64,000 bases of DNA, from positions 1 through 64,000 of the forward strand of contig JBCCHT010000042.1 in the NCBI GenBank assembly GCA_039028615.1, given 5' to 3'. The position numbers and the translations under genes are program-made. The stretch comes from Myxococcota bacterium. Lineage in GTDB: Bacteria > Myxococcota_A > Polyangia > Nannocystales > Nannocystaceae. Each line of letters begins with the position of its first letter. The first letter of the stretch is position 1. Shown one piece after another: positions 12,024 through 60,839 of this stretch. Under the pieces are notes generated by a model. The model searched no databases. It was given only the letters and a program-made list of their open reading frames with translations, and was not told the DNA's origin.

Positions 12024-15000
12024 TCAGGTGCAGGTCTCGTTGTCGCAGCTTCGATCGCCCGTGCATTCCCGGCCACACATGCCGCAGTTGTCGTCGGTGG
12101 TGATCCCGGTGCAGGCGTAGTTGTCCACGGTTCCTCCCGCGAAACAACAGCGAGAGTCGTTGGCCGCATTGGCGCAGCTCCGACCGCACTCTCCACAGTT
12201 CAGGGGATCATCGAAGCGTACGCACGAGCCGGAGCAGCACCGTTCTTCGGGGCTGCACGCATGCCCGCATGCACCACAGTGGTCGGCGTCGGTATCGAGA
12301 TCGAAACAATTGTGTCCGTACTGGCCGTCGGGGCAGCAGGTCTCGCCCGCCCCGCAGGGTTGGTCTCGAGGCGCGCACGAGCCCGGATCGTCCAAAGGCA
12401 CGCACGCCCCGGCAATGCAGTGCTCGGTGGTCGCACAGGCGATGTTGCAGCCACCGCAATGGTCGTCGCGAGTCTGGTAGTCGGCGACCGGAATGCACGG
12501 GCCAAAGGGGCAGCAACCGCTCGCGCAGCCGGGGCAGGCCTGGGTGCGCGGTCGAGGATCGACGCAATGATAGAGCGCGGGCGTGCTGCGCTCGCAGCGT
12601 TGACGCGCGTTGCAGCCCGCCCCGCAGGTCCCGCACGCGCCGTGGATCGAGATACCGAAACACGGGTGCTGGTTTTCGGGATCGGTGAGCTCACAGCACA
12701 GGTTGCCGCCCCGGCACGTCGGAAAGTGCCGGACCATGGCCACAGGATGCAGCGGGTTGTTGCCTGCATCCCGCAGGTCTTCGACGGTGACCAGCACCGA
12801 GCCGCTGTAGGCGTTGCCCGAGGGCCCGAGGTTGTTGGAGGGCATCGCCAGGGTGAGGCTGGGCCAGGTGACGACGAGACGGTTGCCGTTGACGCCATCG
12901 AGGTTGCCGAGCGCGATGTCGCCGGCCGCTGCGGCGACCCGAGGTCCCGTGGGGCGCCCGTTGGCGCCGAGGGCTTGCACATAGACCCGCCGGGGTGCCG
13001 CCATGCTGATCGGGAAGTCGATGCGAGCCTCGAGCGCGGTGGCAGTGCTGGAGCCGTTGGCAGCACACTCGGCGTTGCCCAGGATGGTGAAGTCGGCCAC
13101 CGCCCACCACACCGGATTGCTGATGCCCATGGTGGTCTGGGTGGGATTGGCGGGCGCGGTATCGGTGCGACAAAAGTTGGTGCCGCGAGGCGTGCGGATG
13201 GTGATGCGAGAGGTGGCGGCGCGAGCATAGGAAAGGCCCGTGGAGCGCCCCGAGGGGATGCCGTTGGGGAATAGCGGCAGGTAGTACCACTGGTCGTCGA
13301 CATAGGTGCGGCCCTGCTCGAGCTGGCACTCGCCCTGGCGGCCATAGTCGAGACCCCCCGCGGTCATGCTCCAGATGGCGAGGTCCTCGACGTTGCCGCC
13401 GCTGTTGGCCAGGCCGCTGGGGTTGACGACGCGGAAGCGAAGCTGAGGGGAGAACGCGTCGAGTATCGGGCGGCCGGCACCGCCTTCGTCGCGATCGGGC
13501 ACCAAGATCAAGGCCGTCCGTGTGCCCCCCATGGGCCCGCGTCCGCCCATCTCGCCGTCGCGGTTGAAGGGCGGCGAGGTCGAGGGCGAGCGGTCGAAGC
13601 GTCGCCGGTTGTAGTCGAAGTCCATCGAGGGCCCGTCGAGTCGCGGGTCGGCGTCGAGCTCCACCTGCACCAGCGGGCCGTCGGTGACGATGCTCTGCCC
13701 GTTGAACATGGCCTCGAGGGCGTGGTGCGCCCGCGGGCTGTCGGATATGGCGTAGGTCCGCACGCGACCCCAGGCGTTGCTGGTGAACGCGAGGCTCGTG
13801 TCGCTCCCCGCGAAGGTATGGGCGATGGGATTGGTGAGGATCGTCGCCGCGACGTCGCGGGTGTAGTTGAAGTCGCCGTGCGCATCGGTCCCGCCGACGC
13901 CGTAGACCTTGCGAATGGCCCGGGTCCCGGGCGCGTTGCGGCGGTCGTGGGTCAGCCCCCGCTGCATCAGGTAGCTCCAGTGGAATTGATCGAACCACGC
14001 CTGCGACAGCCAGCTACGCGTGTGGAAGCCGCTGTTCTCGAAGTACCTCCATGGGTCGGATTGGCGATAGTCGTCGGCGCTCAAGCCGTTGAGGCGCGCG
14101 TCGATCTTCATGTTCCAGATCTGGTAGCCGCGTGCGATGGGATGGCCGTCGCGGGTGAACGCATTGTTGCCGTTGTAGGGCCACAGACCGAGGAGTTCCT
14201 CGACGTCGCGCATGCGCCAGGTCGGTGACTTGACGTCTCCGCTCGCCAAGAAGGGGTGAGCGGGATAGGCCGCGGGGATGTGGTCTCCGCTCGCGTCGAG
14301 GATCGCCTGCTGGAGCATGCGATCGACGGTCCAGGGGTTTTCCGGGGCGTCGCCGTGCCAGGGGCCGTCGACGTGGTTGCCGTCGTAGTAGAGCATGTGA
14401 CGGCCGGTCTTGGGCACCCCGGGAAGAGCGCTCGGCGACACGCCGCCCGCGATCGCGACTTCTTCTCCCACCCCGCGATCGAGCAGCTGCCGCATCGCGT
14501 CGAACTCCGCGGGGCCGTCGAGCCCGGCGGTGGGCCCCGCCCCCGGCGACCAGTCACGGGGGATCTCGTCGCGGCTCGAGTCGCTATAGAACTGGTTGTG
14601 ATCGGTCGTGACGATCTTGTTGGCCAGCGAGCTTCGGGTCAGCGCACGACGCTCGATGAATCCCATCGCGTAGGCCGACTCGGCCATCATCACCAGCGGG
14701 GCCCCCCACGACTGCGCGGGGTTGGTGACGCCCAAGATCTCGTCGGCCGAGCCCTCGGCGATGGTGTGGAAGTGGGCATCGTAGTAGCGATCGCCGGACC
14801 GGCCCGCAAAGCGGGGCAGCGTGTCGCGGTGCACTCGTAGCGTGCTCCAGTACTGGATGTTGCTGCCTCCGAACAGGAAGCCGGGCTCGTAGATCACCAC
14901 CTGCGCGAGGAAGTACCGGGTCGCCGGGTCCGTGCCGGTCGTCGGATGATCGAAGGTCGCTTTGTCCCACGGCACCCGCAGCACCCGATGCCACGCCCCG

Positions 15001-17482: not shown

Positions 17483-18823
17483 TCAACCCGCGCACGACAG
17501 CGCGGTGCTCTCGATCGTCCGCCCCGGCCCTCGCGGCTCCACCATGCGAGACACCCGAGGCTCGTCGACCTCCACCACGCCGTGGATCGCCCGCAGCTCG
17601 GGATCCTTGTGCTCCCGAATGATCCGAAACAGCCCATTGTCGAAGGGCCGCGCCTCTTCCGACTGCGACACTTGCTCGATCCGCTCGCGCAGCCCCTGCC
17701 GATCCATCTCCATCGCTCGATGGTGGCAAAACGGGTTGTTCCCCGGCCGCCCCAGCAGCGGCTCGGCCGCAGCGGTGCAGCCCGCCATGCAGGTCTCCGC
17801 GTAGTAGCAGCCGCGACAGAACCCCCACAGGTCGTCCACCGTTCGGCTGCGTATGTAGCCCAGCTGATAGCTCTGATCCCAGATCTTCTTCACCCCGTGC
17901 TCACGCCACGAGCCGCCGACATTGTTGGGGCCACCGAGGCTGGGACAGCTCTTGATCATCCCGTTGCTCTCGATGCCCATCGTCGTTACACCCGCCGAGC
18001 ACCCGCGGAAGTGCTTGTTCTGAGACGCCCGCAGCTTCTGCTCCAGCGGACCGAAGTACCCGAGGTTGTTGCCCGGCCAGATCCTCACCCCGAGCTCGCG
18101 CGCCCGGTCGAGCACCCGGTCGAGCACCTCGAACAGCTCGAGGAACATGTAGGGCTGCAAGATCAGCTCGGGATGATCGGCCGCGTTCCCGTGCGGCACC
18201 GTGATCTGCAGCTGCCACGAGTGGATCCCCTCGGCGGCCAACAGCTCCAGCAACGGCAGCAGGTCCGGCATGGTCAGCGCGTTGAGCTGCGTGTTGCAGG
18301 CGATCTTCCCGCCCGCCGCCTTCACGTTGCGCAGAGCCTGGAACGCCGACTGCCAGCTCCCTTCGACTCCGCGCACATGATCATGGTGCTCCTCGAGCCC
18401 GTCGATCGAGACCGTCACGCTCCCGATCCCCGCCTCGACCATCGCCTCCGCGCGCTCCTTGGTCAGCCCGCGTCCACCCGTGGTCATCGTGCAGGCCATC
18501 CCTTTTTCCCGGATCCGCCGCGCCACCAAGATGAAGTCGTTGCGCAGGTACGCCTCGCCACCGATGAGCACCACCTCGCCCAGTCCGAGCTCCGCCAGCT
18601 CGTCCACCAACGCGAACGCCTCCTCGGTCGTCAGCTCGTCCTTCCGCCGCTTTCCCGCGCGCGGCCCGCAATGCGCACACCGCTGATCGCACGCCAAGGT
18701 CAGCTCCCAGATCGCCCACCGCGGCCGCGGCGACTCCCCCCGTTGCTGCGAATTCCAGCGCGTACCGGGGCTGGGCAGGTGGTCGACGATAGGGAGACGG
18801 CGGCGAGCAGATTCCAAGCGCAT
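17483..18823 (-). CDS. Radical SAM/SPASM peptide or protein maturase, PlpX (splicease)/TIGR03913-like
   Basis: WELTLACDQRCAHC (CxxxCxxC), IGGE, MTTGG, WQLQITVPHGNAAD and PGNNLGYFGP. SPASM cysteines CSAG..SCP..FCRGC...CMAGC...GNNPFCHHR. Confidence 0.9.
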   Translation of the reverse strand: MRLESARRRLPIVDHLPSPGTRWNSQQRGESPRPRWAIWELTLACDQRCAHCGPRAGKRRKDELTTEEAFALVDELAELGLGEVVLIGGEAYLRNDFILVARRIREKGMACTMTTGGRGLTKERAEAMVEAGIGSVTVSIDGLEEHHDHVRGVEGSWQSAFQALRNVKAAGGKIACNTQLNALTMPDLLPLLELLAAEGIHSWQLQITVPHGNAADHPELILQPYMFLELFEVLDRVLDRARELGVRIWPGNNLGYFGPLEQKLRASQNKHFRGCSAGVTTMGIESNGMIKSCPSLGGPNNVGGSWREHGVKKIWDQSYQLGYIRSRTVDDLWGFCRGCYYAETCMAGCTAAAEPLLGRPGNNPFCHHRAMEMDRQGLRERIEQVSQSEEARPFDNGLFRIIREHKDPELRAIHGVVEVDEPRVSRMVEPRGPGRTIESTALSCAG

Positions 18824-24515: not shown

Positions 24516-25487
24516 ATGTTGCGCTCGATTGAATCTTCGGATCTCGCCTCGCTGTTGGCCTTGGATGCGCTCCTCCAGGAGCAGAGCGTCACGGGGGCGG
24601 CACGCCAGCTCGGCATCTCCACTCCCGCGGCCAGCCATGCACTCGCTCGCCTGCGGGCTCGGTTCAACGACGAACTGCTCGTGCGGGCGGGGCGAACGAT
24701 GGTGCTGACCCCTCGCGCCCACGAGCTGCGCGACCGCGTGCGCGATGCGATCGCCACCGCCGATCGGGTGTTCGAGGACCCGGAGGCCTTCGACCCGGCG
24801 ACCATGGAGCAGGCGCTCACGCTGAGCGCCACCGACTACGTGCTGCTGGTGCTCGGCCAGCACCTCGAGGCGGCCGTGGGCAACGCGGCACCGGGCCTGG
24901 AGCTGCGGGTGGTGCCCAACGCCACCAACGACGGCGAGCTGCTGCGAACCGGCGAGACCGACCTGGCCATCGGGATCTACGGAGACCTGCCTCCCGAGCT
25001 CAAGACCCGCCCCATCATCACCGATCGGCTCGTGTGCGTCGTACGGCAGGACCACCCCACCGTGCGCCAGCGCCTCACGCTCAAGCAGTTCGCTCGGCTC
25101 GAGCACATCCAGATCGCGCCGCGCGGGCGCCCGGGCGGCTATGTCGACGAGCTGCTGGCGGAGCGCGGGCTCCAGCGCCGGGTGACGCGTGCGGTGCCCT
25201 ACTTCCACGTGGCGCTCGAGATGGTGGCCAGCTCCGATCGCGTGCTGACGGTGTCCGAGCGCATCGCTCGACGGTCGGCCGACACGCTGCGCTTGCGGCT
25301 GCTCGAGCCGCCCCTGCCCCTGCAGCCCTTTGCGCTGAGCCTGGTCTGGCACCCGCGCCGCGATGGCGATCGCGGCCACGCCTGGCTGCGGGAGCGCTTG
25401 GTCCAGGCCTCGACCGCCCTCGACGCCACGCGTCACCCCCGGGCCCGACGACGGCTGAGCAAGACCGACGCGACGGGCAAGCCCTGA
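24516..25487 (+). CDS. LysR family transcriptional regulator (NodD/MexT-like)
   Basis: HTH LDALLQEQSVTGAARQLGISTPAASHALARLRARFNDELLVR and C-terminal LVWHPRRDGD..HAWLR. Confidence 0.95.
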   Translation: MLRSIESSDLASLLALDALLQEQSVTGAARQLGISTPAASHALARLRARFNDELLVRAGRTMVLTPRAHELRDRVRDAIATADRVFEDPEAFDPATMEQALTLSATDYVLLVLGQHLEAAVGNAAPGLELRVVPNATNDGELLRTGETDLAIGIYGDLPPELKTRPIITDRLVCVVRQDHPTVRQRLTLKQFARLEHIQIAPRGRPGGYVDELLAERGLQRRVTRAVPYFHVALEMVASSDRVLTVSERIARRSADTLRLRLLEPPLPLQPFALSLVWHPRRDGDRGHAWLRERLVQASTALDATRHPRARRRLSKTDATGKP

Positions 25488-25581
25488 ACCCAATAGTTAA
25501 CTTTCGTGCAAGTATAAGTGTATCCGTGTTCGATTGTCGCAATGTTCAGCCGTGGACATAGTGACCGTCGAGGCGCGAACC

Positions 25582-26328
25582 ATGAGCGGAAACATCAACG
25601 TCACCAATCCCGACAAGAAGAAGCGAATCCTGATCGTTGCGGCGAATCCGTCGACGTCGACGGTCACGAAGTGGCCCATCGGTTTTTGGTGGGCCGAGCT
25701 GACGCACCCGTTTTGGGTCTTTACCGAGGCGGGCTACGACGTGGAGATCCGCAGCCCACAGGGCGGCGCCTTGGCGGGCGACAGCTTCAGCGACCCCGAG
25801 GACGACAGCGGCTACTCCGCCCACGACATCGTTAGCCTGGGCTTCAAGAAGTCCGACCGGCATCGCGGGCTCGTCGAAGACACCAAGAGCATCGCCGACG
25901 TGAACGTCGACGCCTACGACGCGGTCTTCCTGGTCGGCGGGCAGTCGCCGATGTTCACCTTCAAGGGCAACACCGAGCTCCAGAGCCTGGTGGCTCGCTT
26001 CTACGAGGCGGGCAAGATCACCGCGGTGGTCTGCCACGCGACCTGCGTGCTGCTGGAGACCAAGCTGTCCTCGGGCGAGCTGCTGGTCAACGGCAAGACC
26101 TGGACCGGCTTCGCGAACGCGGAAGAGAAGTTCGCGGACGACTTCGTAGGCACCCGCATCCAGCCGTTTTGGATCGAGGACGAGGCCCGGAAGATCGAAG
26201 GCACCAACTTCGTGGTCGACCAGATGTTCCGCGAGTTCGCGGTCCGCGACGGTCACCTCGTCACCGGTCAGCAGCAATACTCGGGCGCGGCCGCGGCCCG
26301 CCTCGTCGTCGAGGCCCTCGGGCGCTAG
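25582..26328 (+). CDS. DJ-1/PfpI (Hsp31-like, class I glutamine amidotransferase-like) protein
   Basis: Motifs GFWWAELTHP, YDAVFLVGGQSPM, AVVCHA and VRDGHLVTGQ. Confidence 0.92.
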   Translation: MSGNINVTNPDKKKRILIVAANPSTSTVTKWPIGFWWAELTHPFWVFTEAGYDVEIRSPQGGALAGDSFSDPEDDSGYSAHDIVSLGFKKSDRHRGLVEDTKSIADVNVDAYDAVFLVGGQSPMFTFKGNTELQSLVARFYEAGKITAVVCHATCVLLETKLSSGELLVNGKTWTGFANAEEKFADDFVGTRIQPFWIEDEARKIEGTNFVVDQMFREFAVRDGHLVTGQQQYSGAAAARLVVEALGR

Positions 26329-26342
26329 GAAGGACCACGGCG

Positions 26343-26846
26343 ATGACTCCGGACGACTTCGTCGCGCTCGCGCTCGCCAACCCGATGCACAGCGGCAAGG
26401 CCCAGTACGGCTACTCGATGCGGGTAGCGTCGGACAACCGCAACCCGCCCGGTGTCATCGCCCTGACCTGGATCACGGGCAAGGACGACTCGGAGCGCGA
26501 TCGCATCCGAGCGCACTCCAAGCAGAACGTGCAGAACTTCCTCGAGGAGCCCGGCTTCATCTCCATCGTCACGGGCTTCATCGGCCTGCGGGGCTTCACC
26601 GTCACCGCGTGGGAAGACGAAGACGCGATGAAGCGCGCGCTGGGGCGACACCACGCGCAGGCGATGCGAGAGTTGTTCGGCGAGGACTTCGTGGCGAGCG
26701 TGTGGACCAGCGTGTGGACCCCGACCCGGATGAACCGCATGTGGGTGCGCTGCACCGCGTGCTCGTCGCTGCAAGACGTCGACGATGATCATCGCGAGTG
26801 CACGGAGTGCAGCGCGGCTCTGCCCGAGCGGCCCTCCTTTTGGTAG
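26343..26846 (+). CDS. Hypothetical protein: dimeric alpha/beta-barrel-like domain plus C-terminal Zn ribbon
   Basis: PGFIS..TVTAWEDEDAM..HAQAM resembles ABM/DUF3291 folds. C-terminal CTAC...CTEC. RBS GGAAGGA upstream. Confidence 0.65.
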   Translation: MTPDDFVALALANPMHSGKAQYGYSMRVASDNRNPPGVIALTWITGKDDSERDRIRAHSKQNVQNFLEEPGFISIVTGFIGLRGFTVTAWEDEDAMKRALGRHHAQAMRELFGEDFVASVWTSVWTPTRMNRMWVRCTACSSLQDVDDDHRECTECSAALPERPSFW

Positions 26847-26861
26847 CCAGAGGTGAAAACG

Positions 26862-27491
26862 ATGAAGATAGCCATCCTGGGCGCAGGAAATGTGGGCACG
26901 ACCCTCGGTCGTCGCTTCGTGGATGCGGGGCACGAGGTCGTCTACGCGGTCCGTAATCCGCTGGCGCCGAAGTCCGCGAGCTTGGCCGGGGAACGCACGG
27001 AGGTGCTGGCCGTGCCCGAGGCGGTGGCGGCGGCCGAAGTCGTGCTGTTGTCGACGCCCTGGCCCGCCACCGAGGCCGCACTCGCGGCGGCCGGAGACTT
27101 CGGCGGCAAGCCGCTGCTCGACGCCACCAACCCCATCGGTCCCGGCCTCACGCTGACCCACGGACACGACGACTCGGGCGCAGAGCAGGTGCAGCGCTGG
27201 GCTCGGGGCGCGCGCGTGGTCAAGGTGTTCAACAGCACCGGTCGCGAGAACATGGCCGACCCGGCCTACCCGGAGGGGCCCGCGGCGATGTTCCTGTGCG
27301 GCGACGACGACGACGCCTGCGAGACCGCGCGTACGCTGTGCGAGGCCCTGGGCTTCGAGCCCGTGCGGGTGGGGGGCCTGGCGCGAGCGCGGGTGCTCGA
27401 GCCGGCCGCGATGCTGTGGATTCAGCTGGCCGCCGTACTCGGGCACGGCCGCGACATCGCATTCGGATTGCTGAGGAGGGAAGATCGATGA
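26862..27491 (+). CDS. F420-dependent NADP oxidoreductase family protein (copy 1)
   Basis: Motifs GAGNVG, LLDATNP, SGAE, VVKVFN, CGDD and LEP. Confidence 0.9.
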   Translation: MKIAILGAGNVGTTLGRRFVDAGHEVVYAVRNPLAPKSASLAGERTEVLAVPEAVAAAEVVLLSTPWPATEAALAAAGDFGGKPLLDATNPIGPGLTLTHGHDDSGAEQVQRWARGARVVKVFNSTGRENMADPAYPEGPAAMFLCGDDDDACETARTLCEALGFEPVRVGGLARARVLEPAAMLWIQLAAVLGHGRDIAFGLLRREDR

Positions 27492-28108
27492 AGATCGCGA
27501 TCATCGGAACGGGGAGGATCGGAGCCGGGCTCGGGCGGGCGTGGTCTCGCGCGGGTCACCAGGTGGTCTTCGGGGCCAGGGATCCGGCCAAGCCCGAGGT
27601 GGTGGACCTGGCGGCGTCGTTGTCGGCCACGGTGCGGCCGCTCGACTCGGCGACGGAGGGGGCCACGGTGGTCGTGCTCGCCGTGCCTCATCCCGCGCTC
27701 GAGGACGTGCTGTCGGCCATCGGCCCCGACGCGGGTGCCATCGTCATCGACTGCACCAACGCCGTGCAGCGCGGCATGACCCTGCGCCACGGTCATACGA
27801 CCTCGGCCGCCGAGCTGCTCCAGACCCGGCTCCCCCAGACGCGGGTTTTCAAGTCGTTCAACGCCCAGGGAGCCGAGAACCTCGCCGATCCCGTCTACCA
27901 GGGCGTGCGAGCCTCGAACTTCTTCTGTGGTGACGATGCCGAGGCCGCGTCGGTGGTCGAGTCGTTGATCGAAGACGTCGGGTTCGAGGCCGTGAACGCG
28001 GGCCCGCTGAAGAACGCCCGCTTGCTGGAGCCCATGATGATCCTGTGGGTCACCGCCGCGCAGGCGCTCGGCACCCGCGACCTGGCCTTCAAGCTGATGA
28101 GGCGATGA
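27488..28108 (+). CDS. F420-dependent NADP oxidoreductase family protein (copy 2)
   Basis: Motifs GTGRIG, VIDCTN, SAAE, VFKSFN, CGDD and LLEP. ATGA overlap with copy 1. Confidence 0.9.
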   Translation: MKIAIIGTGRIGAGLGRAWSRAGHQVVFGARDPAKPEVVDLAASLSATVRPLDSATEGATVVVLAVPHPALEDVLSAIGPDAGAIVIDCTNAVQRGMTLRHGHTTSAAELLQTRLPQTRVFKSFNAQGAENLADPVYQGVRASNFFCGDDAEAASVVESLIEDVGFEAVNAGPLKNARLLEPMMILWVTAAQALGTRDLAFKLMRR

Positions 28109-29190
28109 CCCTCGGCCTTCGCGTGGGTGTGGTCGGAGCGTCCATCGGAGGCTTGTCGGCTGCGTGCGCGCTCGGGCGCTCGGGCGCTCGCGTCCATGTG
28201 CTCGAGCGGGCGCGCCCGTGCTTTGCCGAGCGTGGCGGGGGCCTGGGCGTGAATCCCGAGCTGGTCACGCGGGTGAGCGGGCGACCGGGGCTGCCGTGCC
28301 TGGTGCTCCGCAAGCGTCGACTGTGGAGCGCCCGCGAGCAGAGCGTACGAGACTGTCGGCTGCCCGTGGCCTCGTACGGCGCGCTGTGGCGCTGGCTGTG
28401 GCAGGCCGCCGATCGGGCGGCGGTGGAGTTCCAGCGGGATGTCGCGCTCGCCGAGCATCGCGACTGCGTGCGGGTGACCACCTCCGACGGGCGCGTGTCG
28501 AGCTTCGAGCTGTTGGTCGCCGCCGATGGGGGCGGCTCGGCGATCCGGTCCACGCACTTCGGTGCTCGCCGAGCCTACGCCGGCTACACGTTGTGGCGCG
28601 GCCTCGTACCGCTTCGAGCTCTGCCTGCTCTCGTCGACCGCGAGCCCACGCTGCACGTAGCGACACGACCCTCGCAGCACTTCGTCGCCTACCCGATCCC
28701 CGGTCCGAACGGCAGCCTCGAACCCGAAGATCGACGGCTCAACTGGGGCTGGTATCGCGGCATGCCCGAGGCCGAGCTGTCCTCCGTGCTCGCGACGCTC
28801 TCCGGTTCTCCCCACGTCCTCACCCGCCACGAGCCCTCGGTGCGCGCGCTGTCGAAGCGGTGGACCCCCGAGGGGTGGCCAGGCTGGGTCGACGCCATCG
28901 TGCGCGCCACGGTGGAGCACGGGCAGATCCGGCCGCATCCCGTGTACCAGTACGTCCCCGCGTCGCTCGGACGGCGGCGGATCGCACTGCTGGGTGATGC
29001 GGGCCACCTCGCCAGCCCGATCACGGGTGCCGGGGCGGGCCTGGCCATGGAGGACGCGCTCGAGCTCGCCGCCGCGCTCGGGCGAGGGACGACCGTGGAA
29101 GCGGCCGTGGCCGACTACTCGAGTGCTCGGCTGGAGCGGACGCAGCAGATGGTCCGCCGTGGCGTCGAGCGGGGTAGCGCCTTTCGCTAA
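28105..29190 (+). CDS. FAD-dependent monooxygenase (aromatic hydroxylase class)
   Basis: Motifs GASIGG, VAADGGGS, YAGYTLWRG, LNWGWY and LLGDAGH..SPITGAG. Confidence 0.88.
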   Translation: MTLGLRVGVVGASIGGLSAACALGRSGARVHVLERARPCFAERGGGLGVNPELVTRVSGRPGLPCLVLRKRRLWSAREQSVRDCRLPVASYGALWRWLWQAADRAAVEFQRDVALAEHRDCVRVTTSDGRVSSFELLVAADGGGSAIRSTHFGARRAYAGYTLWRGLVPLRALPALVDREPTLHVATRPSQHFVAYPIPGPNGSLEPEDRRLNWGWYRGMPEAELSSVLATLSGSPHVLTRHEPSVRALSKRWTPEGWPGWVDAIVRATVEHGQIRPHPVYQYVPASLGRRRIALLGDAGHLASPITGAGAGLAMEDALELAAALGRGTTVEAAVADYSSARLERTQQMVRRGVERGSAFR

Positions 29191-44773: not shown

Positions 44774-45964
44774 ATGAAGCGCGCCTACCGAAATCTCACC
44801 TCTGCCGCATTCGTCCTGGCGATGACGACCATCGCGACCGGCTGCCCCGGTGGAACCGACAACGGTTTGAACGATCGCGCGCCCTTCCGCGACTCATGGG
44901 CCGTGGTGGCCGATCTCGCGTTCGTGCACACCGGCCCCGAGGGCGTGGAAATCGGCAGCGTCAACGTCGGTGGCCGCCTGACCAACGACAACTTCGCCAA
45001 CCGCGGCGACGTCATCGTCAACTTCGACGGGCCTGCCGACCGCATCCTCGTCGAGATGCGTCGCTTCACGCAGACCACCGACTCGTCCGCCGCTCAGGTC
45101 GACTTCGACAACCTGTCGCTGTGGGCGTTCAACTCCTCGCTGGGTCGCCCGCAGGACCAAGCGGTCGAGGACGACTGCGTGGCCAGCGGCTGGCAAGGCG
45201 GCTGCGAAATCCGCGTGTACTACGACGGGCAGAGCCAGCTGCAGCGCGCGGGCGCCGACATTCGCGTCACCCTGCCGCCCGACTACCGCTACGAGCTCAA
45301 CGTCGAGACCGAGGACAACGTCGCGGACGACGACTACTTCAACCGCGGTGACATCTGCGTCAGCAACCTGAACGGTACGGCCAACATCACCGCACAGAGC
45401 GGCAACGTCTGGGTCAACCTCGCCGCCGAGACCACCCCGACGCCGACCTGCACGGCCGACGACATCGCGCGATGCGAGGGCTGGACCAACGACGACGGCA
45501 CGGGCACCGAGGTCCCCGCCCCGTGGGATCCGCAGTGCGGCTGCATCAACCACGGCGCCCTGGACATCAACAACCGCGACGCCGCGGCCTCGAACATCAC
45601 CGTCGACCTGCCCTCGAGTCTGTGGACCTCGATTCGCGCCGAGAACACCGGCGAGGGCCAGATGTCCGCGGGTGAGCACTGCGAGGCCAACGTCGACGTC
45701 TCCAACAGCGAAGAGGACCCCACGGGCAACGACTTCCCGTGGCAGGCCTCCTACGCGGCCAACTACCCGGGCATGCCCGCGGTGGCTGGTGCCGGCTACT
45801 TCGTGAAGCTCGAGTCCAGCGAGTGCTCGCCGGTCGCGTTCACCCAGGGCCCCGACGACTTCGTGGGCGTGGGCAACGGCGACGACCAAGAGTCCTCCGA
45901 GCGCGGCAACATCACCGTCTGCAACGGCTGCATCACCCAGACCTGCGCGGACCTGGTCCCGTAA
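44774..45964 (+). CDS. Hypothetical Cys-containing, beta-rich lipoprotein
   Basis: Lipobox ATGC, strongly C-ending codon usage, followed by a strong terminator. Confidence 0.75.
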   Translation: MKRAYRNLTSAAFVLAMTTIATGCPGGTDNGLNDRAPFRDSWAVVADLAFVHTGPEGVEIGSVNVGGRLTNDNFANRGDVIVNFDGPADRILVEMRRFTQTTDSSAAQVDFDNLSLWAFNSSLGRPQDQAVEDDCVASGWQGGCEIRVYYDGQSQLQRAGADIRVTLPPDYRYELNVETEDNVADDDYFNRGDICVSNLNGTANITAQSGNVWVNLAAETTPTPTCTADDIARCEGWTNDDGTGTEVPAPWDPQCGCINHGALDINNRDAAASNITVDLPSSLWTSIRAENTGEGQMSAGEHCEANVDVSNSEEDPTGNDFPWQASYAANYPGMPAVAGAGYFVKLESSECSPVAFTQGPDDFVGVGNGDDQESSERGNITVCNGCITQTCADLVP

Positions 45965-45983
45965 CCTGCGGGCAGCGTTCGAC

Positions 45984-46019
45984 GAAAAAGGGAGGCTCAG
46001 TGAGCCTCCCTTTTTCTTT
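45984..46019. terminator. Bidirectional intrinsic terminator
   Basis: GAAAAAGGGAGGCTCA-G-TGAGCCTCCCTTTTTC is a perfect inverted repeat with A and T tracts, between convergent genes. Confidence 0.92.
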
Positions 46020-46042
46020 GGTTGTGCGCCTTCGTGTGCGCG

Positions 46043-48997
46043 TCAGGTGGGGTTGCCGTCGCTGCTGGGCGGCTCGTAGTGGCTGCGATAGCGCCCCCAA
46101 AGGTCGGGCCAGTCGTCGATGCGAGCGGGGCCGCTCTCGGCCCACGACGACAGCGATAGCTGCAGCGCGCTTTCGAATTGGAACCACAGCGAGGTTTCGG
46201 AGGGCCGCGACGGGGTATCGGCGCTCTCGTCCGACTGGGCCAGGGCTTGCTCGACCGCCCGATCGACCACGCCGTGGGCGGTCATGGTCGGCGTCAGGAA
46301 GCACGCTCCCGGCTGGAACATGGAGTCCGGCCGGGCCGGGGTCCGCAGGATGCCGTTCACCTCGGTGGCCGCGTTGCGATGGAAGAAGGGCGGTCGGAAG
46401 GTGTGGGCGGTGGTGTCCCAGCGCGGCGGAAAGACGACCAGGTCGAGCCCGTTGGCCCCGCGCTCGTCGAGCGGAGCGGTGAGCACGGTATAGGCCGAGG
46501 GGTCGATGTGGTCGTAGGCCACATTGGACACGGGGGAGAACAACGCGAGGTCGTAGGCGTAGGGCGTGTAGTTGCCGTGCCACGCGACGACGTCGAAGGG
46601 GCTGCGATCGAGGGTCGTCTGATAAAGCTGCCCGCCCATCTTGGTGGTGAAGCGAAAGCCGGGATCGGGTCGGTTCTCGAACCAGGGGGTGGGCGTGCGG
46701 AAGTGCCGGGGATCGGCGAGCCCGTTGGCCCCCACCACGCCGCGATCGGGCAGCTCGAAGTGGCGGCCGTAGATCTCGCCCACGTAGCCGCGGGCGCAGT
46801 CGCCCTGGAGCAGCACGGAGAACGCGATGCCGCGGGGGATGATCGCCAGCTCGCCCGGGGCCACGTCGAGCACGCCCAGCTCGGTGCGCAGGGTCAGCGC
46901 GCCCTCTTGCGGCAGCAGCAGCAGATCGCCATCGGAGTTCTGGTAGGCGCGATGCTCCATGCTGCGGTTGGCCGCATACAGGTGGATGGCAAAGCCGCGT
47001 CGCTCGGCCGCGCGCCCCTGGCCCCCGTAGGTGTGCATGCCGTCCACGAAATCGGTGGGCGCCTCGGGGATGGCCAGCGGTCGGTGCCCCACCAGGTTGA
47101 TGGCGGGAGGTCGCAGCGCATAGTCCTCGCACAAGGTGGGGTGCAGCAGGGGGACGAAGGGGCGATGCCCCGCGGAGGGCCGGATCCGGTAGACCCAGGT
47201 CCGCAGGTTGTGCGAGCGCGCGGCGACGAAGCCAGTGCCGTTCCACTGCTCGGCATACAGCCCCATCGGCCCGCGGCGGGGGCTGTTTTGCGTGCGGGGC
47301 AGGGCTCCGGGCAAGGCCTCCACCGCGTGGGTGTTGCCGAAGCCGCTGACGCCTTCGTTGGTGGTGCCGAGCAGGAGCTCGCGGGCGCGGATCCGCTGGC
47401 GTCCGCCGATCTCGTGGATGTCGCCCGGCTCGATCATCGTCTCCACGGTCGCGCCCGCGTCGACCAGCTCGGCCACCGTCTCTTCGAAATCGGTGGCGTC
47501 GATCCACGGGTCGGCCTGCGCCACGCCGACCAAGACCGGCACCTCGTCCAGCGCGCCACCGAAGGCCGGTCGCGCGTCGGAGGGACCCACGCGAGCGCCC
47601 GCCAGCGCGATCACGGTGGCGAAGGACCCACATTCGCGGGTGAGCAGCTCGAAGGCCAAGCAGGCCCCCTGCGAAAAGCCCAGCAGGTGCACGCGGGCAT
47701 GCGGAGCCCTCTGCTCGATCCAGGCCCGCGTGGCCTCCAGGGTCCCGAGGGCGGCGTTCATGCCTTCGGCGTCGTCGGCCCACGCGGTGCGGTAGGTCGC
47801 CTCCGACCACGAGCCGCCGGGGGCCTGGGGCGCCACGATGGCCACCCCGGGCGCGTCCCCGACGATCTCCCGGGAGCGCTGCACGATGGCATCGGCCGTG
47901 GAGGCGCGACCGTGCACCGCGAGCACGACATCGTCCGCGCTCTCGAGGTCCCCGTGCACCGAAAGCGGCGGGCCGTGATCCCAGGGGCACCAGCGAACGT
48001 GTCGCGACGGTCGGCGGCCCAGCAACGCGGGCTGCACCCACGACTGCGGACCCAGCGTGTCTTCGATGGCCTCGTGCACGTCGGCCGGCGCCACGCCCAG
48101 GGCGGACAGCGACGAAGCCCCGCCCACCGCGACCAGCGTATCGAACAGGGTGGCGAGGGGGTCGGCCTCGGGCAGCGCGTCGAGAATGGCGCGGTACAGC
48201 TCGGGGGAGTGGCGGCGCATGGCCGCGATGGAGGCGGGCAGCAACGCCGCGTGCACGGCCGCGTGGGGCAGGCCGAAGCGAGCGCCCAGCACATGCACCA
48301 CGCGGTGGTGTCGGCCCATGCGGTGCGCGTCGAGGATCTGGGCGGCGGCCGAAGCCCCGCGCGCGGCCTCGACCCGCGCCTGCCGATGCCGCGGGCGATC
48401 GGCGAGCATCAGCACCGCGCGATACAGCTGAGCCATCACCGCCAGCGCCCGCTCGCGCAGCGTCTCGTCGAGCGGATCGCTCGACAGCGCGCTCATGGGG
48501 TGGGCCATGGCGTTGACGAGGCTCTGGACGGTGAGCCGCCGCGACAGCGTGTCGAGGAACTCGGGCACATAGGCCACCACGTCGGCGCGCACTCGATCGT
48601 CGCGCCCCGTCTGCTTGTTGCCCTCGTCGGTGATGCCGTAGATCCGGGTCATCTCCGAGCCGGCGTAGGTGGTGGGAATGGCCACGAAGGGCAGCGTGGT
48701 CTCCAGCCGCAGCGCCTTGGCCAGGCCGGTCGCCGACCCTCCGCCCACCGTCACGATCGCGTCCGCGTCGTGCTCACCCAGCGCCTTGCGGACCGCCTCG
48801 ACCTTGGCTCGGGGCACATGCACCTCGGCCTGCGAGAAGCGGCGGACGGTCATGCCCTCGAGGCCCGCTTCGACCTCGTCGACGAAGCGCTGCGCGGGGC
48901 CGCTGATGAGCAGCGGGCGGGCCACACCTTTGTCGCGCAGCCAGTCGAGCGCCTGGGTCAGCGCGTCGAAACCGAAATAGGTGATCGGGTCGGGCAT
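46043..48997 (-). CDS. hmgA: Trifunctional fusion: maleylacetate reductase-like + carboxylesterase + homogentisate 1,2-dioxygenase
   Basis: One open frame. N-terminal GGGSATG, IPTTYAGSEMT, HHRVVHVLG and LPHAAVH. Central HGR, GFSQG, DPW and HEI. C-terminal GFGN..EALPGALP..QNSP, DVVAWHGNY, HIDPS, RPPFFHRNAATE and TAHG. Confidence 0.9.
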   Translation of the reverse strand: MPDPITYFGFDALTQALDWLRDKGVARPLLISGPAQRFVDEVEAGLEGMTVRRFSQAEVHVPRAKVEAVRKALGEHDADAIVTVGGGSATGLAKALRLETTLPFVAIPTTYAGSEMTRIYGITDEGNKQTGRDDRVRADVVAYVPEFLDTLSRRLTVQSLVNAMAHPMSALSSDPLDETLRERALAVMAQLYRAVLMLADRPRHRQARVEAARGASAAAQILDAHRMGRHHRVVHVLGARFGLPHAAVHAALLPASIAAMRRHSPELYRAILDALPEADPLATLFDTLVAVGGASSLSALGVAPADVHEAIEDTLGPQSWVQPALLGRRPSRHVRWCPWDHGPPLSVHGDLESADDVVLAVHGRASTADAIVQRSREIVGDAPGVAIVAPQAPGGSWSEATYRTAWADDAEGMNAALGTLEATRAWIEQRAPHARVHLLGFSQGACLAFELLTRECGSFATVIALAGARVGPSDARPAFGGALDEVPVLVGVAQADPWIDATDFEETVAELVDAGATVETMIEPGDIHEIGGRQRIRARELLLGTTNEGVSGFGNTHAVEALPGALPRTQNSPRRGPMGLYAEQWNGTGFVAARSHNLRTWVYRIRPSAGHRPFVPLLHPTLCEDYALRPPAINLVGHRPLAIPEAPTDFVDGMHTYGGQGRAAERRGFAIHLYAANRSMEHRAYQNSDGDLLLLPQEGALTLRTELGVLDVAPGELAIIPRGIAFSVLLQGDCARGYVGEIYGRHFELPDRGVVGANGLADPRHFRTPTPWFENRPDPGFRFTTKMGGQLYQTTLDRSPFDVVAWHGNYTPYAYDLALFSPVSNVAYDHIDPSAYTVLTAPLDERGANGLDLVVFPPRWDTTAHTFRPPFFHRNAATEVNGILRTPARPDSMFQPGACFLTPTMTAHGVVDRAVEQALAQSDESADTPSRPSETSLWFQFESALQLSLSSWAESGPARIDDWPDLWGRYRSHYEPPSSDGNPT

Positions 48998-49005
48998 GGC
49001 AGTGC

Positions 49006-49863
49006 ATGAAGCATGTCTCCCGCCCTTGGACCTACGCAAGCGTCTGTGCCAGGCTCGAACCCGTGGTGGCCGGCCTCTCGCTTCATCGTCGTTGCGCATC
49101 GACGCTGTGCAAGCTCTTGTGCATGGCCGCGATCGTGACTGCCTGCCGCGCTTCGGGGCCGACCGAAACGCCCACCGCGACCGCTGCACCGAGTTCTGCG
49201 GCCACCGACCGCCCCGCCTCCACGCCCGCCACTGGCCCGGCCCCGAGCGACGACGAGGGCTGGGAGTCGGTCACGAACGAGGACGGCATCATCGTGACCG
49301 CACGCGCCAGTGCGCGCAGCGAGCTGAAGGTGTTTCGCGGGGTCGGCGTGGTCGAGGCGCCTCTCATCGAGGTGCTCGCGGTGATCACCGACGCCGATCG
49401 CCACGACGAGTGGGTGCACTCGTGCTCCGAGTCGGGTCTCATCGAGCAGAGCACCGAGCTGACCGGGTTCGTCTACAACCGCACCGCGACGCCCTGGCCC
49501 GTGGCCGATCGGGACGTGGTGCTGCGCAGCCGCATCCAGCTCATCGACGGGGAGCGCGAGGTCCTGGTGACCTTCACCGCCACCGAGCACCCCGCCAAGG
49601 CGCCCGAAGACGGGGTCATTCGCATGCCCTATCTCGAAGGCCACTATCACCTGTGGGCGCAAGGGCCTTCGAGCACGCGGGTCGAGTACCAGGTCGACAG
49701 CGATCCCGGCGGGCGGCTGCCCACGGGGCTCGTGTCGCGGGGCACGCGGGACATGCCGGTCGAGACGCTGCAGGGGCTGCGGGCGCAGGTCGTACGCACC
49801 CGCGGCAGCTACGCGGAGAAGATCGAAGACTTCCGCCGCACCATCACGAACGCGGGCTCCTAG
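49006..49863 (+). CDS. START domain (lipid-binding) protein, probably a lipoprotein; true start likely downstream
   Basis: Motifs WESVTNEDGI, EWVHSC, PWPVADRDVV and DPGGRLP. Possible lipobox VTAC. Confidence 0.85.
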   Translation: MKHVSRPWTYASVCARLEPVVAGLSLHRRCASTLCKLLCMAAIVTACRASGPTETPTATAAPSSAATDRPASTPATGPAPSDDEGWESVTNEDGIIVTARASARSELKVFRGVGVVEAPLIEVLAVITDADRHDEWVHSCSESGLIEQSTELTGFVYNRTATPWPVADRDVVLRSRIQLIDGEREVLVTFTATEHPAKAPEDGVIRMPYLEGHYHLWAQGPSSTRVEYQVDSDPGGRLPTGLVSRGTRDMPVETLQGLRAQVVRTRGSYAEKIEDFRRTITNAGS

Positions 49864-57620: not shown

Positions 57621-59174
57621 TCAGCGTGCGATCGCGTCCGCGATGCGAATGCCGTCGAGCGCCGCGCTCATGATCCCGCCCGCGTAGCCCGCTCCTTCAC
57701 CGCACGGGTAGAGCCCCGCCACCGACGGCGATTGCAGGCTCTCGCGATCTCGATCGGTGCGCACGGGCGCGCTGGTCCGGGACTCCACCCCCACCGCGAT
57801 CCCTTCCGCCGACACGAAGCCCGGCATGCGCTCCCCGATGCGTCGCAGCGCCTCGCGCAGCGGCAGCGCCAGCCCGCCCAGCAGCTCGTCGAGCCGAGCC
57901 GAGGCCAGCCCTCGCGGGTAGCTGCAGACCGGCAACGCCGACGAGCTCCGTCCCGCCACGAAGTCGTCGATCCGCTGCGCGGGCGCGACATAGTCCCCGC
58001 CCCCCGCCTCGTACGCCGCCGCCTCGATCCGTCGCTGCAGCTTCAACCCCGCGAACACGTCGCTCGGATCGAGGCCCGCCGCCTCGAGCTGCGTCGGTCC
58101 GACCTCCGTCACGAACCCCGAGTTCGCGTACTTGCCTCGCCGTGACGAAGGGCTCCAGCCGTTGACCACCTGTCCCCCGTGCTCCGTCGCGGCCGGCACG
58201 ATGAACCCTCCCGGGCACATGCAGAACGAAAACGCTCCCGCGCCTTCCGCCTGCTCCACCAGACGATAGGCCGCGGCTCCCAGCGCCGGGTGCCCCGCCA
58301 GCCCTCCGAACTGCAGCCCATCGATCAACGGCTGCGGATGCTCCACCCGGAACCCCACCGCAAACGGCTTCGCCGACAACGCCACCCCGGCCTCGTGCAG
58401 CCACTGCGTCACATCCCGGGCCGAGTGTCCCACCGCCAGCACCACCGCCCGCGCATCGATCGTCTCCTGCTCCAGCCGCACCCCGCACACGCGCCCGTCC
58501 TTCACCACCAGCCCATCGACGCGCCGCCCGAACGCAAACTCCACCCCCGCGCTTTCGAGATGCTCCCGCATCGCCCCCACCACGCCGGGCAGGCGATTGG
58601 TCCCGATATGCGGCCGCGCATCCACCAAGATCTGCGACGGCGCCCCGTACCCCACGAACGCATCCAGCACCCGCTGCATGTCCCCCCGCTTGTGCGATCG
58701 CGTGTACAGCTTCCCATCGCTGAACGTCCCCGCCCCTCCCTCACCAAAACAGTAGTTGCTCTCCGGATCGAGCTGCCCCTGCTTGCTCAGCGCCGCCAGA
58801 TCCCGCCGTCGTGGCCGAACCGGCTTCCCCCGCTCCAGCACCACCGACCGAATCCCATGCTGCGCCAACGCCCACGCACAAAACGTCCCCGCCGGCCCCG
58901 CCCCCACGATCACCACCCCGGGTTCCCCACTCAACGTCGGAAGATCCACCGGCCCCCGCTCACTCGAGCTCGGCTTCTCTTCCCCCCGCATCACCAACTC
59001 CACCTCCAGCTGCAGCTGCACCCGCCCCCGCCGAGCATCGATCGACTTCCGCCGAACAACCGCCGCCACAACCTCCTTCACCCCCACCTTCCCCCGCTTC
59101 GCCGCCGCCCGACGCAGCCCCTCCTCATCAAAAAGAAGATCTGGATGAACCCGCAACTGAACCCGACGTCCCAC
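57621..59174 (-). CDS. FAD-dependent dehydrogenase (COG2509-like)
   Basis: Motifs GAGPAG, FGEGGAGTFSDGKL, PHIGT, FCMCPGG and GEGAGYAGGIMSAALDG. Confidence 0.92.
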   Translation of the reverse strand: MGRRVQLRVHPDLLFDEEGLRRAAAKRGKVGVKEVVAAVVRRKSIDARRGRVQLQLEVELVMRGEEKPSSSERGPVDLPTLSGEPGVVIVGAGPAGTFCAWALAQHGIRSVVLERGKPVRPRRRDLAALSKQGQLDPESNYCFGEGGAGTFSDGKLYTRSHKRGDMQRVLDAFVGYGAPSQILVDARPHIGTNRLPGVVGAMREHLESAGVEFAFGRRVDGLVVKDGRVCGVRLEQETIDARAVVLAVGHSARDVTQWLHEAGVALSAKPFAVGFRVEHPQPLIDGLQFGGLAGHPALGAAAYRLVEQAEGAGAFSFCMCPGGFIVPAATEHGGQVVNGWSPSSRRGKYANSGFVTEVGPTQLEAAGLDPSDVFAGLKLQRRIEAAAYEAGGGDYVAPAQRIDDFVAGRSSSALPVCSYPRGLASARLDELLGGLALPLREALRRIGERMPGFVSAEGIAVGVESRTSAPVRTDRDRESLQSPSVAGLYPCGEGAGYAGGIMSAALDGIRIADAIAR

Positions 59175-59314
59175 GACTTCCCCCCGTCATCTCATGAACC
59201 CGCCCCCCGGTCCATCCACCCACCACCCCCGAAGGGAACAACACCCACCCTGCTCCAAACAAGTACCCCACGGCAAAACCCACCCCATCCCCGAGCAGCA
59301 ACCAACCGACCCCT

Positions 59315-59660
59315 TCGTTCGAACATTTCCACCCACTCCAAGCACTCCCGCCCCTCACCCAAGCACCCCACCGAACCTCCAAGCAAGCCACCCCCCACCC
59401 AAGCAGAACCCACCCCACCGCCCGAACGGAAGCCGCCGTACGGGGAGGGCCAAAGCGAAGCCGCGTAGGATGGAGGGGGCCCGGTCGCGCGGAGGCGGCC
59501 GCCGACGACCGTCGAGAAACACCCGGGTATCATGGCCGCCGAGCACGTCCGGGAAGGGTTCCAGCCGTCAACAGGCGAGCCCCTGGTTCGAACACATCAC
59601 TCCCACTCCAAGCACTCCCGCCCCTCACCCAAGCACCCCACCGAGCTCTCCGTTCGAACA
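59315..59660. repeat. Dispersed copy of the REP-like repeat with duplicated C-rich flanks
   Basis: Core GGGGAGGGC..AAGCGAAGCCGCGTAGGATGGAGGGGGCCCGG...GGGTTCCAGCCGTCAACAGGCGAGC at ~59442-59580. A 43-nt direct repeat occurs at 59332 and 59602. Confidence 0.92.
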
Positions 59661-59711
59661 CTCCCCAACCCCCCTTCGCGCAACCAGAAATCCCCCCACC
59701 GCGAGCAAACT

Positions 59712-60839
59712 TCAAGACCCCGAAGAAGGCCCAGACGCCACCAACAACCCCGCCGCCACCGCCTTGCTCCGCATCGCATGCAACATCCGTCCCCGGTCCG
59801 CCGTATCCCGCCTCCACTTCCTCCCAAGCTTCGCCCGCACATCCGGGTTCAACCCCAACCTCCGAGCCCGCTTCCGAAAGTTCGCATTCGGCCCCACCGT
59901 CGCACAGTGCCCCCGCGAGAACCGACGATTCACCGTCGCATACGAATCCCCAAACCCTTGCGCCTCACACTCCCGCTGCGCCGTCCGAGCGGCCCAAACC
60001 GCGGTGATGATCGCCACCAACCCGTTGTCATCACAAAACACCCAAGGCGGCGCACTCGAATCCCAAACCGGCACAAAGTACGCCGGATTAAACCCAAAGG
60101 GCCCGTATCCAAATGCCCACGCCGGCTCCGACCCCGGCGAGACCGAGCCGTCCGTCGCCGTCACCTCGAACTCGATGATGTCGTCGAGATACGGGTTGTC
60201 GCGAAAGGTCTGCACCTGATGCAGCCGCGCCTTCGCCTTCCAGTACTCGCTGTCCTGCTTGCTCAACTTGGCCATGTGGGCCTGCAGCTCCGCCTCTTCG
60301 GTCGGCGAGTAGTGCAGGCGTCTCCATGCCGCGGTCGCGGCCTCGATGTCGGGATTGAGCACGTGCATGGCGTGCGGCCGATAGGTCGACTCCCGCATCG
60401 CCCACGCTCGAATCAGCCGCGGCTCGGCCCCCATCTCCTTGGCGACCAAGGTCACCAATTGAGAGAAGCGCTTCTCGTCGGCCTTGGTCCACGGACGACG
60501 GACTCGCTTGTAGCGACGACGACCCTCGTCATCGATCTTCACCCGCACGCGCTCGCACTGGTTGGGCGCACGACCCTTCAGGGTGGCTCCCTTGGCGGAG
60601 GCCAGCACGGGGGTGGGAGCCTCGGCGGCAGACGGAGCGCCCGCCTCGGTACCTTCGTCGGCATCGGCGGCCGCAACCACGGGCTGCGTTCGGGTCTCGG
60701 TGGCCGGATCTCCGGGGCTCGACGGAGCATCGACGTGCTCGACCTCGGCCTCCACGTGAACGACCTCGTACTCGGGCTCGCCCCCGGGGCCACACGATAC
60801 GACAGCGAAGATGCAGCCAAGCACGATAGCTCTGCCCAT
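59712..60839 (-). CDS. Hypothetical lipoprotein with a possible lytic-transglycosylase-like motif
   Basis: Lipobox VVSC. LIRAWAMRESTYRPHA resembles SLT motif I. Confidence 0.6.
   Translation of the reverse strand: MGRAIVLGCIFAVVSCGPGGEPEYEVVHVEAEVEHVDAPSSPGDPATETRTQPVVAAADADEGTEAGAPSAAEAPTPVLASAKGATLKGRAPNQCERVRVKIDDEGRRRYKRVRRPWTKADEKRFSQLVTLVAKEMGAEPRLIRAWAMRESTYRPHAMHVLNPDIEAATAAWRRLHYSPTEEAELQAHMAKLSKQDSEYWKAKARLHQVQTFRDNPYLDDIIEFEVTATDGSVSPGSEPAWAFGYGPFGFNPAYFVPVWDSSAPPWVFCDDNGLVAIITAVWAARTAQRECEAQGFGDSYATVNRRFSRGHCATVGPNANFRKRARRLGLNPDVRAKLGRKWRRDTADRGRMLHAMRSKAVAAGLLVASGPSSGS

Follow-up and report, generated by a model that had tools for sequence, protein, structure and literature searches.

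The stretch of DNA analysed here (the window; 64,000 nucleotides, positions 1 to 64,000 of the forward strand of contig JBCCHT010000042.1, GenBank assembly GCA_039028615.1, from a Myxococcota bacterium of the Nannocystaceae) contains a gene that codes for a maleylacetate-reductase-like domain, an alpha/beta hydrolase and a ring-cleavage dioxygenase of the homogentisate dioxygenase (HmgA) fold on one polypeptide. With moderate confidence, based on the analysis of these domains, their relatives and the surrounding genes, this fusion is considered to be a one-chain route by which methoxyhydroquinone, together with O2, NADH and water, would be converted into 3-oxoadipate and methanol. The substrate is probably a 2-alkoxy-hydroquinone, with methoxyhydroquinone favoured and 2,6-dimethoxyhydroquinone as a further candidate. 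The C-terminal Fe(II) domain would cleave the ring with O2, at the bond joining the carbons that bear the hydroxyl and the methoxy groups, giving maleylacetate monomethyl ester. The N-terminal reductase would then reduce the maleyl double bond with NADH to yield 4-oxo-monomethyl adipate, from which the middle Ser-Asp-His hydrolase would split off methanol to leave 3-oxoadipate. The latter could reach succinyl-CoA via BKACE, or through a CoA transferase and a thiolase. Such an enzyme would likely serve the destruction and assimilation of redox-active methoxy(hydro)quinones from the environment or from prey.

This proposal arises from a route described in the fungus Aspergillus niger. According to the accessible part of that report (PMC8336404), the HmgA-family enzyme MhdA was assayed and converts methoxyhydroquinone to 4-hydroxy-6-methoxy-6-oxohexa-2,4-dienoate, loss of the neighbouring esterase gene omeA causes 4-oxo-monomethyl adipate to build up, and the candidate for the middle step is the maleylacetate-reductase homologue NRRL3_4956. 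Since the fusion holds exactly the three functions of the A. niger route, it is read as a methoxyhydroquinone-to-3-oxoadipate enzyme. Judged by annotation, the two systems share the three activities and the enzyme families; they are further alike in the 3-oxoadipate end point and in the presence of an HmgA-fold paralogue beside a normal HmgA, whereas they differ in that the fungal genes are separate and fed by the vanillate hydroxylase VhyA, the bacterial functions being carried by a single polypeptide with no nearby feeder gene.

A full-text literature search returned no paper on the reductase-hydrolase-HmgA architecture, subscription papers being mostly outside this search and the absence thus unproven. 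The domain families are known, as is the logic of the pathway; the bacterial clade described below and the three-in-one chain are undescribed in the literature searched. If the proposed route is correct, the protein would provide a bacterial methoxyhydroquinone dioxygenase of the HmgA fold, and a single gene would lead from a lignin-type hydroquinone to the known platform chemical 3-oxoadipate. This would also mean that a part of myxobacterial aromatic catabolism is hidden by misnaming, the fusion proteins being named homogentisate 1,2-dioxygenase or iron-containing alcohol dehydrogenase in the source records.

The fusion protein and its three active sites

As the preliminary description of this DNA had stated, the gene is an uninterrupted three-domain frame of about 984 codons: its translation is free of stops, and the Pfam matches along the protein all exceed their cut-offs (Fe-ADH 6-141, ADH_Fe_C 156-311, Abhydrolase_2 399-532, HgmA_N 550-817 and HgmA_C 820-973). 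The GC content at third codon positions amounts to 0.87-0.93 across all 100-codon bins, without a dip at the junctions. The same description had proposed to check read support across the junctions and retention of the fusion in relatives. Regarding the former, a contig of sequencing run X1 covers positions 45700-48677, and thus both junctions, with zero differences, although this run may itself be the source of the DNA; runs X2 and X3 gave short chance pieces only, and no RNA run is listed among the runs with this DNA. Regarding the latter, a homologue search gave 555 matches, and all 120 of those listed align over 95-100% of the query and are 47-93% identical to it. An assembly artefact is rejected on the grounds of these full-length homologues, of the X1 contig and of the invariant catalytic residues. 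The AlphaFold2 model of the protein has a mean predicted local distance difference test (pLDDT) score of 91.5 and a predicted template modelling (pTM) score of 0.90; the confidence in the packing of the domains differs between models, the Atlas model having a pTM of 0.50. In the Atlas, the fusion belongs to an automatically named cluster of 116. Coordinates are collected in Table 1.

Table 1. Features of the fusion gene and of its 3' flank, in window positions
Feature	Position	Strand	Basis
Fusion gene (P0001): reductase, hydrolase, HmgA-fold dioxygenase; 984 aa	46043..48997	minus	stop-free translation, Pfam, homologues
Maleylacetate-reductase-like domain, residues 1-330	48008..48997	minus	PDB matches, structure superposition, residue counts
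Alpha/beta hydrolase (Abhydrolase_2), residues ~341-545; proposed methyl esterase	47363..47977	minus	Pfam, PDB match, triad
HmgA-fold ring-cleavage dioxygenase domain, residues 549-984	46046..47353	minus	Pfam, TIGR01015, alignments, structure superposition
Lid loop of the active site (residues 885-893); the Tyr-Asp-Ala-Lys motif seen in homogentisate dioxygenases is missing	46319..46345	minus	alignments, counts
15-pair hairpin with A/T runs flanking both sides; likely two-way terminator	45984..46016	.	fold

Residue counts were taken over 121 aligned fusions; they and the tree omit L106 (frameshift) and four duplicate loci. The iron ligands of the dioxygenase domain (His873, Glu879 and His908) are invariant in 121/121, which bears out their earlier description as kept. 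By sequence, the nearest solved structures of this domain are homogentisate dioxygenases, and its model superposes on the human and P. putida enzymes (HGD) with VIA Z values of 49-51 and a root-mean-square deviation (rmsd) of 1.7-2.0. In the alignment, human His292 (here His830), Pro295, His335, Glu341 and His371 are all retained. Compared to HmgA/HGD (TIGR01015; PDB 1ey2, 3zds, 4aq6), the domain thus shares the fold, the iron ligands, His292, Pro295 and 43-44% identity, but it scores 447.4 bits against the HmgA equivalog TIGR01015, below the cut-off of 510.75, is fused, and shows no linkage to hppD, maiA or fah. Its pocket differs as well: Asn881 replaces Met343 and Thr902 replaces His365 (human numbering), and the lid carrying Tyr350 (Tyr346 in P. 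putida) is exchanged, with loss of the tyrosine. Position 881 is Asn, and position 902 Thr or Ser, in all 121 fusions. The lid Tyr is absent in 76/76 reductase- or hydrolase-linked dioxygenase domains, the pattern matches of L016 and L088 having been assigned by eye to the Phe357 position, and Tyr, Met and His are all present in 24/24 canonical HmgA domains. This three-residue rule separates the clade from true HmgA. In a quick tree without fungal sequences, the lid-less domains form a single clade of 85 rows with an SH-aLRT support of 100, nearly all from Myxococcota. The 496-residue chain of PDB 9pz4, named homogentisate 1,2-dioxygenase, likewise has neither the lid Tyr nor His365, and the Arg-Trp-Asp motif of the clade occurs in it too.

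According to the accessible text of a review (PMC11634970), the lid Tyr binds the carboxylate of homogentisate. In the same text, PcMHQD2 of Phanerochaete chrysosporium, with Phe at the lid Tyr site, is reported to cleave methoxyhydroquinone and not homogentisate, neither PcMHQD1 nor PcMHQD2 to act on hydroxyquinol, and bacteria to use an unrelated dioxygenase for the methoxyhydroquinone step. In what could be seen of a further paper (PMC12420386), fungal methoxyhydroquinone dioxygenases are named as the characterised cases. The fused domain resembles PcMHQD1 and PcMHQD2, which act on methoxy- and dimethoxyhydroquinone, in its HmgA fold and His-Glu-His iron site, and PcMHQD2 also in the absence of the lid Tyr. 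Both are, in contrast, stand-alone fungal enzymes, and PcMHQD2 carries Phe at the lid site, whereas the whole lid motif is exchanged in the fusion. As to bacteria, a methoxyhydroquinone route in Sphingobium SYK-6 was reportedly described by Bleem in 2023.

Concerning the reductase domain, its closest PDB matches are 3jzd, 3hl0 and 3w5s (E 1e-39 to 1e-42), four maleylacetate-reductase-type proteins being found among the nearest solved structures by sequence, and the model superposes on solved reductases with VIA Z values of 40.7-43.0 and an rmsd of 2.0-2.4 over ~330 aligned residues. It carries Lys128, Asn162, His166, His230, His231, His235 and His245. The nucleotide-binding glycines, Lys128, Asn162, His166, His231, His235, His245 and His249 are conserved in 120-121 of the 121 fusions, with 120/121 for His166, the equivalent of the catalytic His172. 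Compared to maleylacetate reductase (PcpE; PDB 3w5s, 3hl0, 3jzd), the fold, the Asn-x-x-x-His motif, the His cluster and the Lys140 equivalent are kept, while the signature LHHKLCHTLGG has drifted, Arg stands for Lys238 and the domain shares its chain with a hydrolase and an HmgA-fold dioxygenase. The middle domain scores 31.6 bits with Abhydrolase_2 (cut-off 23) and matches best the carboxylesterase 4h0c in the PDB (E 4.8e-22). Its triad, also noted earlier as intact, consists of Ser442 in the GFSQG motif, Asp496 and His528 and is present in 121/121 fusions.

Distribution and gene neighbourhoods of the clade

The named homologues among the matches listed are Myxococcota or Deltaproteobacteria records, including that of the cultured Paraliomyxa miuraensis (WP_266214735.1, 66% identical). 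The linkers are short and constant: positions 326-345 make 20 residues in 99/121 fusions, and positions 540-552 make 12-14 residues in 115/121. The 79 classified loci comprise 44 intact triples, 15 reductase-dioxygenase doubles and 12 stand-alone dioxygenases, the remainder being cut by contig ends (4) or split or frameshifted (4); operons of a reductase-hydrolase fusion and a separate dioxygenase occur at L144, L145 and L174. The gene is patchy, with a reductase match in 17/73 genomes of the order. Among 23 genomes with double, split or stand-alone forms, none has a match to the hydrolase with an E value below 3.7e-8, two triple-fusion controls giving 1e-37 to 1e-73, and the relatives without hydrolase are a second subtype. 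The natural triple, double and split forms provide material to test the role of the esterase.

Related fusions were also recorded. The hydrolase family is fused to a reductase in reverse order in P0280, and reductases are fused to intradiol dioxygenases in P0321, P0336 and P0394, so that the logic of joining a reductase to a maleylacetate-making enzyme recurs. A still larger fusion that includes a feeder enzyme was not found among the 33 of 150 representatives that were scanned, proteins above 1722 aa not being searched separately, and the 33 proteins scanned include no three-domain fusion lacking the HmgA fold. A plasmid search gave 325 matches, of which the 25 listed all show 45-46% identity, the ordinary HmgA level. 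Lid-less dioxygenases without a reductase in the same frame were observed at L079, L085 (contig end), L092, L094 and L019 and in P0157 and P0168; one without a linked reductase is named for Pseudenhygromyxa sp. WMMC2535, and pirin genes lie beside several.

The neighbourhoods were examined over flanks of 2.7-19 kb, related loci not being independent. In 7/44 intact triple-fusion loci, the gene directly upstream, which has the same orientation, encodes a BKACE. All seven encoded proteins exceed the cut-off of NF053568 (3-oxoadipate:acetyl-CoA acetyltransferase), with 438-472 bits against 350. An enzyme of this type occurs in only 11 of 50 genomes (a set for which ten loci were dropped), and in 6 of these the single copy adjoins the fusion. 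The fusion of another subclade is followed by a 3-oxoacid CoA-transferase pair (3/71 plus 5/17 further loci), the available models not separating 3-oxoadipate from acetoacetate enzymes. Each association may go back to one ancestral event, yet the two systems are unrelated. Besides, the operon L142:5104-13266 (genome G200) combines a CoA transferase, a maleylacetate reductase, a thiolase, an intradiol dioxygenase, a FAD monooxygenase, a VOC protein and a member of the same hydrolase family, the latter gene coming after the VOC-family gene, which we take to be MhqO/LinE-like. Bacterial mhqO/mhqD-type pairs resemble the fusion in that a hydroquinone-type dioxygenase is accompanied by an adjacent GxSxG hydrolase and sometimes by a maleylacetate reductase (accessible text of PMC12673573; L142), and the reductase-intradiol fusions in that a reductase is joined to a ring-cleavage enzyme; both use VOC or intradiol dioxygenases, unlike the HmgA fold found here.

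Several gene types recur near the fusion in various arrangements, namely an acyl-CoA ligase, a citryl-CoA-lyase-like protein, a theta-like glutathione S-transferase (GST) and a VOC protein (L047:12752-16604, L054, L056, L060, L066, L067, L071, L078, L080, L086, L140, L151). The VOC protein is seen near 10/44 triples; among double fusions, a second ligase is seen at 11/15 and the GST at 9/15. This ligase/GST/VOC cassette was looked for in the present genome and not found.

Weighing the proposed substrate

A number of observations weigh against the proposed route. In the accessible text of the review cited above (PMC11634970), PcMHQD1 retains the lid Tyr and still prefers methoxyhydroquinone, so that the lid is no clean marker; His365, described as a proton-transfer residue in the part seen of a preprint (bioRxiv 10.64898/2026.06.02.729205), is exchanged throughout the fusions, which could lower activity; and a review (PMC12673573), whose accessible part gives no assay for this, reads mhqO-adjacent hydrolases as C-C hydrolases. 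Arg232 stands at the position of PcpE Lys238, which is essential for free maleylacetate according to the part available of PMC5741723. Across the 121 fusions this position holds Arg in 55, Ala in 24, Lys in 16, Gln in 8 and Thr in 6; Lys is retained in 8/8 deeper-clade triples and 12/17 doubles, but in only 5/40 loci of the query's subclade, where the 35 others have changed it along with the Glu found next after the catalytic His in solved reductases. As judged from the sequence, Arg232 fits an esterified substrate, but it would also fit a weakened reductase; the pattern would be consistent with the ester being reduced first and hydrolysed afterwards, the order of the A. niger route. The lack of a hydrolase in double-fusion genomes implies two or more types of substrate within the clade. 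As the seven BKACE-adjacent loci are all Polyangiaceae records of one subclade, they may reflect a single event. In the present genome, no clear substrate feeder was found (VanA_C reaches only 24.8 bits, and four of nine FAD_binding_3 matches were tested, none of which exceeded an NCBIfam cut-off), nor a clear 3-oxoadipate sink, the BKACE scoring 178.7 bits, below the 3-oxoadipate cut-off, and the best thiolase 535 against a cut-off of 597. Finally, the DNA is present in a marine metagenome, where lignin monomers are less expected. The sole BKACE of the genome ends a cluster (G000:C2:353761-360982) that resembles, by sequence, an acyclic-terpene (geranyl-CoA carboxylase) cluster.

The preliminary description had favoured another route, in which homogentisate would be converted via maleylacetoacetate and succinylacetoacetate to succinate and acetoacetate, with no isomerase or glutathione. 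The HGD-type fold and iron ligands are in line with it, and the CoA transferases adjoining some fusions could serve acetoacetate. One triple fusion is directly preceded by a gene (L178:9639-10466), of a type seen in 1/88 loci, that is presumably phenylalanine-hydroxylase-like, and a second HmgA was not found in 16/50 genomes with two queries, these genomes being incomplete. That maiA and fahA are missing is true of the window; both maiA and a fumarylacetoacetate-hydrolase-like gene are, however, present elsewhere in the genome. The search for maiA, fahA and hppD that had been proposed led to contig C1, where a fumarylacetoacetate-hydrolase-like gene (a weak match under its cut-off, with E 1.7e-4), maiA (235 bits, cut-off 171), hppD (277.6 bits, cut-off 277) and a second, short-type hmgA follow each other as an ordinary operon. 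MaiA exceeds its cut-off in 40/50 genomes with the fusion clade; short-type HmgA, for which a protein query was used because PF04209 is insensitive to it, is found in 33/50, and long canonical HmgA in one further genome. hppD, fah or maiA were seen beside 0/71 clade loci, against 5/8 canonical ones. Together with the exchange of the lid Tyr, Met343 and His365 and with the 3-oxoadipate type of the adjoining BKACEs, this separate operon makes the homogentisate bypass very improbable, and it is rejected; the fallback of the same description, a different hydroquinone-type substrate, holds.

Among such substrates, a different 2-substituent within the same design and with the same end product is possible, if doubtful: an amino-, acylamino- or halo-hydroquinone, or an acyl ester unmasked by the hydrolase before ring opening. 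The altered pocket is a better argument against homogentisate than for a methoxy group, and with an amino or acylamino substrate the middle domain would hydrolyse the ring-opened amide. Acyl halides hydrolyse spontaneously, and the hydrolase-less doubles (15/79 loci) would fit such a self-hydrolysing product; the GSTs beside nine of these doubles and the PcpE lysine kept in most of them point the same way. On the other hand, the triad intact in all triples would be needless for a halo substrate, and the assayed non-homogentisate enzymes of the HmgA fold that were found, in sources seen in part, act on methoxy- or dimethoxyhydroquinone and not on hydroxyquinol. Myxococcota are largely predatory and use menaquinone, and the near confinement of the clade to their records could hint at an enzyme for prey quinones, acting on ubiquinol, its methoxy-prenyl-quinol precursors or forms with a shortened chain by opening their methoxylated ring. 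Such a function, which would be in line with the lost and variable lid, the drifted reductase pocket of the main subclade, the acyl-CoA ligases that recur nearby and a marine genome with no clear lignin funnel and a geranyl-CoA-carboxylase-like cluster (as read from sequence), is nevertheless highly unlikely: the 3-oxoadipate-type neighbours imply an unsubstituted product, a tetrasubstituted prenylated alkene would be a poor substrate for the reductase family, a search of this genome for the ligase cassette gave none and the gene is patchy within the order. A wider version, quite unlikely as well, would make the lid-less clade a predator's quinone-disposal system for prey ubiquinol, its precursors or trimmed forms, or for methoxyquinone toxins of prey and plants, with ring opening in one trifunctional enzyme and with the doubles as a sister subtype for halogenated hydroquinones; if a prey-quinone system were real, it would mean that bacteria have a way to break the head group of ubiquinone. 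Lastly, the reductase domain might have lost or changed its activity in the query's subclade, leaving a dioxygenase and esterase only. The changes at Lys238 and at the adjacent Glu speak for this, as does a same-genus reductase-hydrolase paralogue without catalytic residues, from which it follows that decay occurs in this family; since the domain is full length throughout and keeps its glycines, Lys128, Asn162 and the His residues listed above, such a loss is hardly probable.

The paralogue in question, conserved and of ~590 aa, was observed in four same-genus genomes (L169:7167-8945, L170:7233-9032, L172:7045-8829, L173:6732-8495). Its hydrolase Ser motif reads GELQG or GEQQG, Phe stands at the reductase Lys128 equivalent, and the C-terminal tail is charged; it is likely a pseudoenzyme, to judge by these replacements. 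It was looked for in the present genome and not found.

Surroundings of the fusion gene in the window

A START-domain protein is encoded divergently from the fusion (49006-49863, plus strand); it is probably a lipoprotein whose true start comes later, and it is kept beside the fusion only in two close relatives. On the other side, the hairpin 3' of the fusion stop has a folding energy of -34.2 kcal/mol (z -4.9), with equally stable shuffles in 0/200. This downstream hairpin and the divergent upstream gene suggest that the fusion is a one-gene unit; a sigma-70-like promoter was searched for at the gene and none was found.

About 17 kb away from the fusion, positions 24516-29190 bring together genes for a LysR regulator, a DJ-1/PfpI protein and an F420-type NADP oxidoreductase, as well as a FAD-dependent monooxygenase-like gene (PRK07236-like, below cut-off). 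The intergenic region at 58001-60000 shows a strong composition shift, with a GC skew of -0.37 and an AT skew of 0.21. Finally, a radical SAM gene (17486-18823, minus strand) adjoins the gene of a 1764-aa subtilase-family protein (12027-17318, minus strand).

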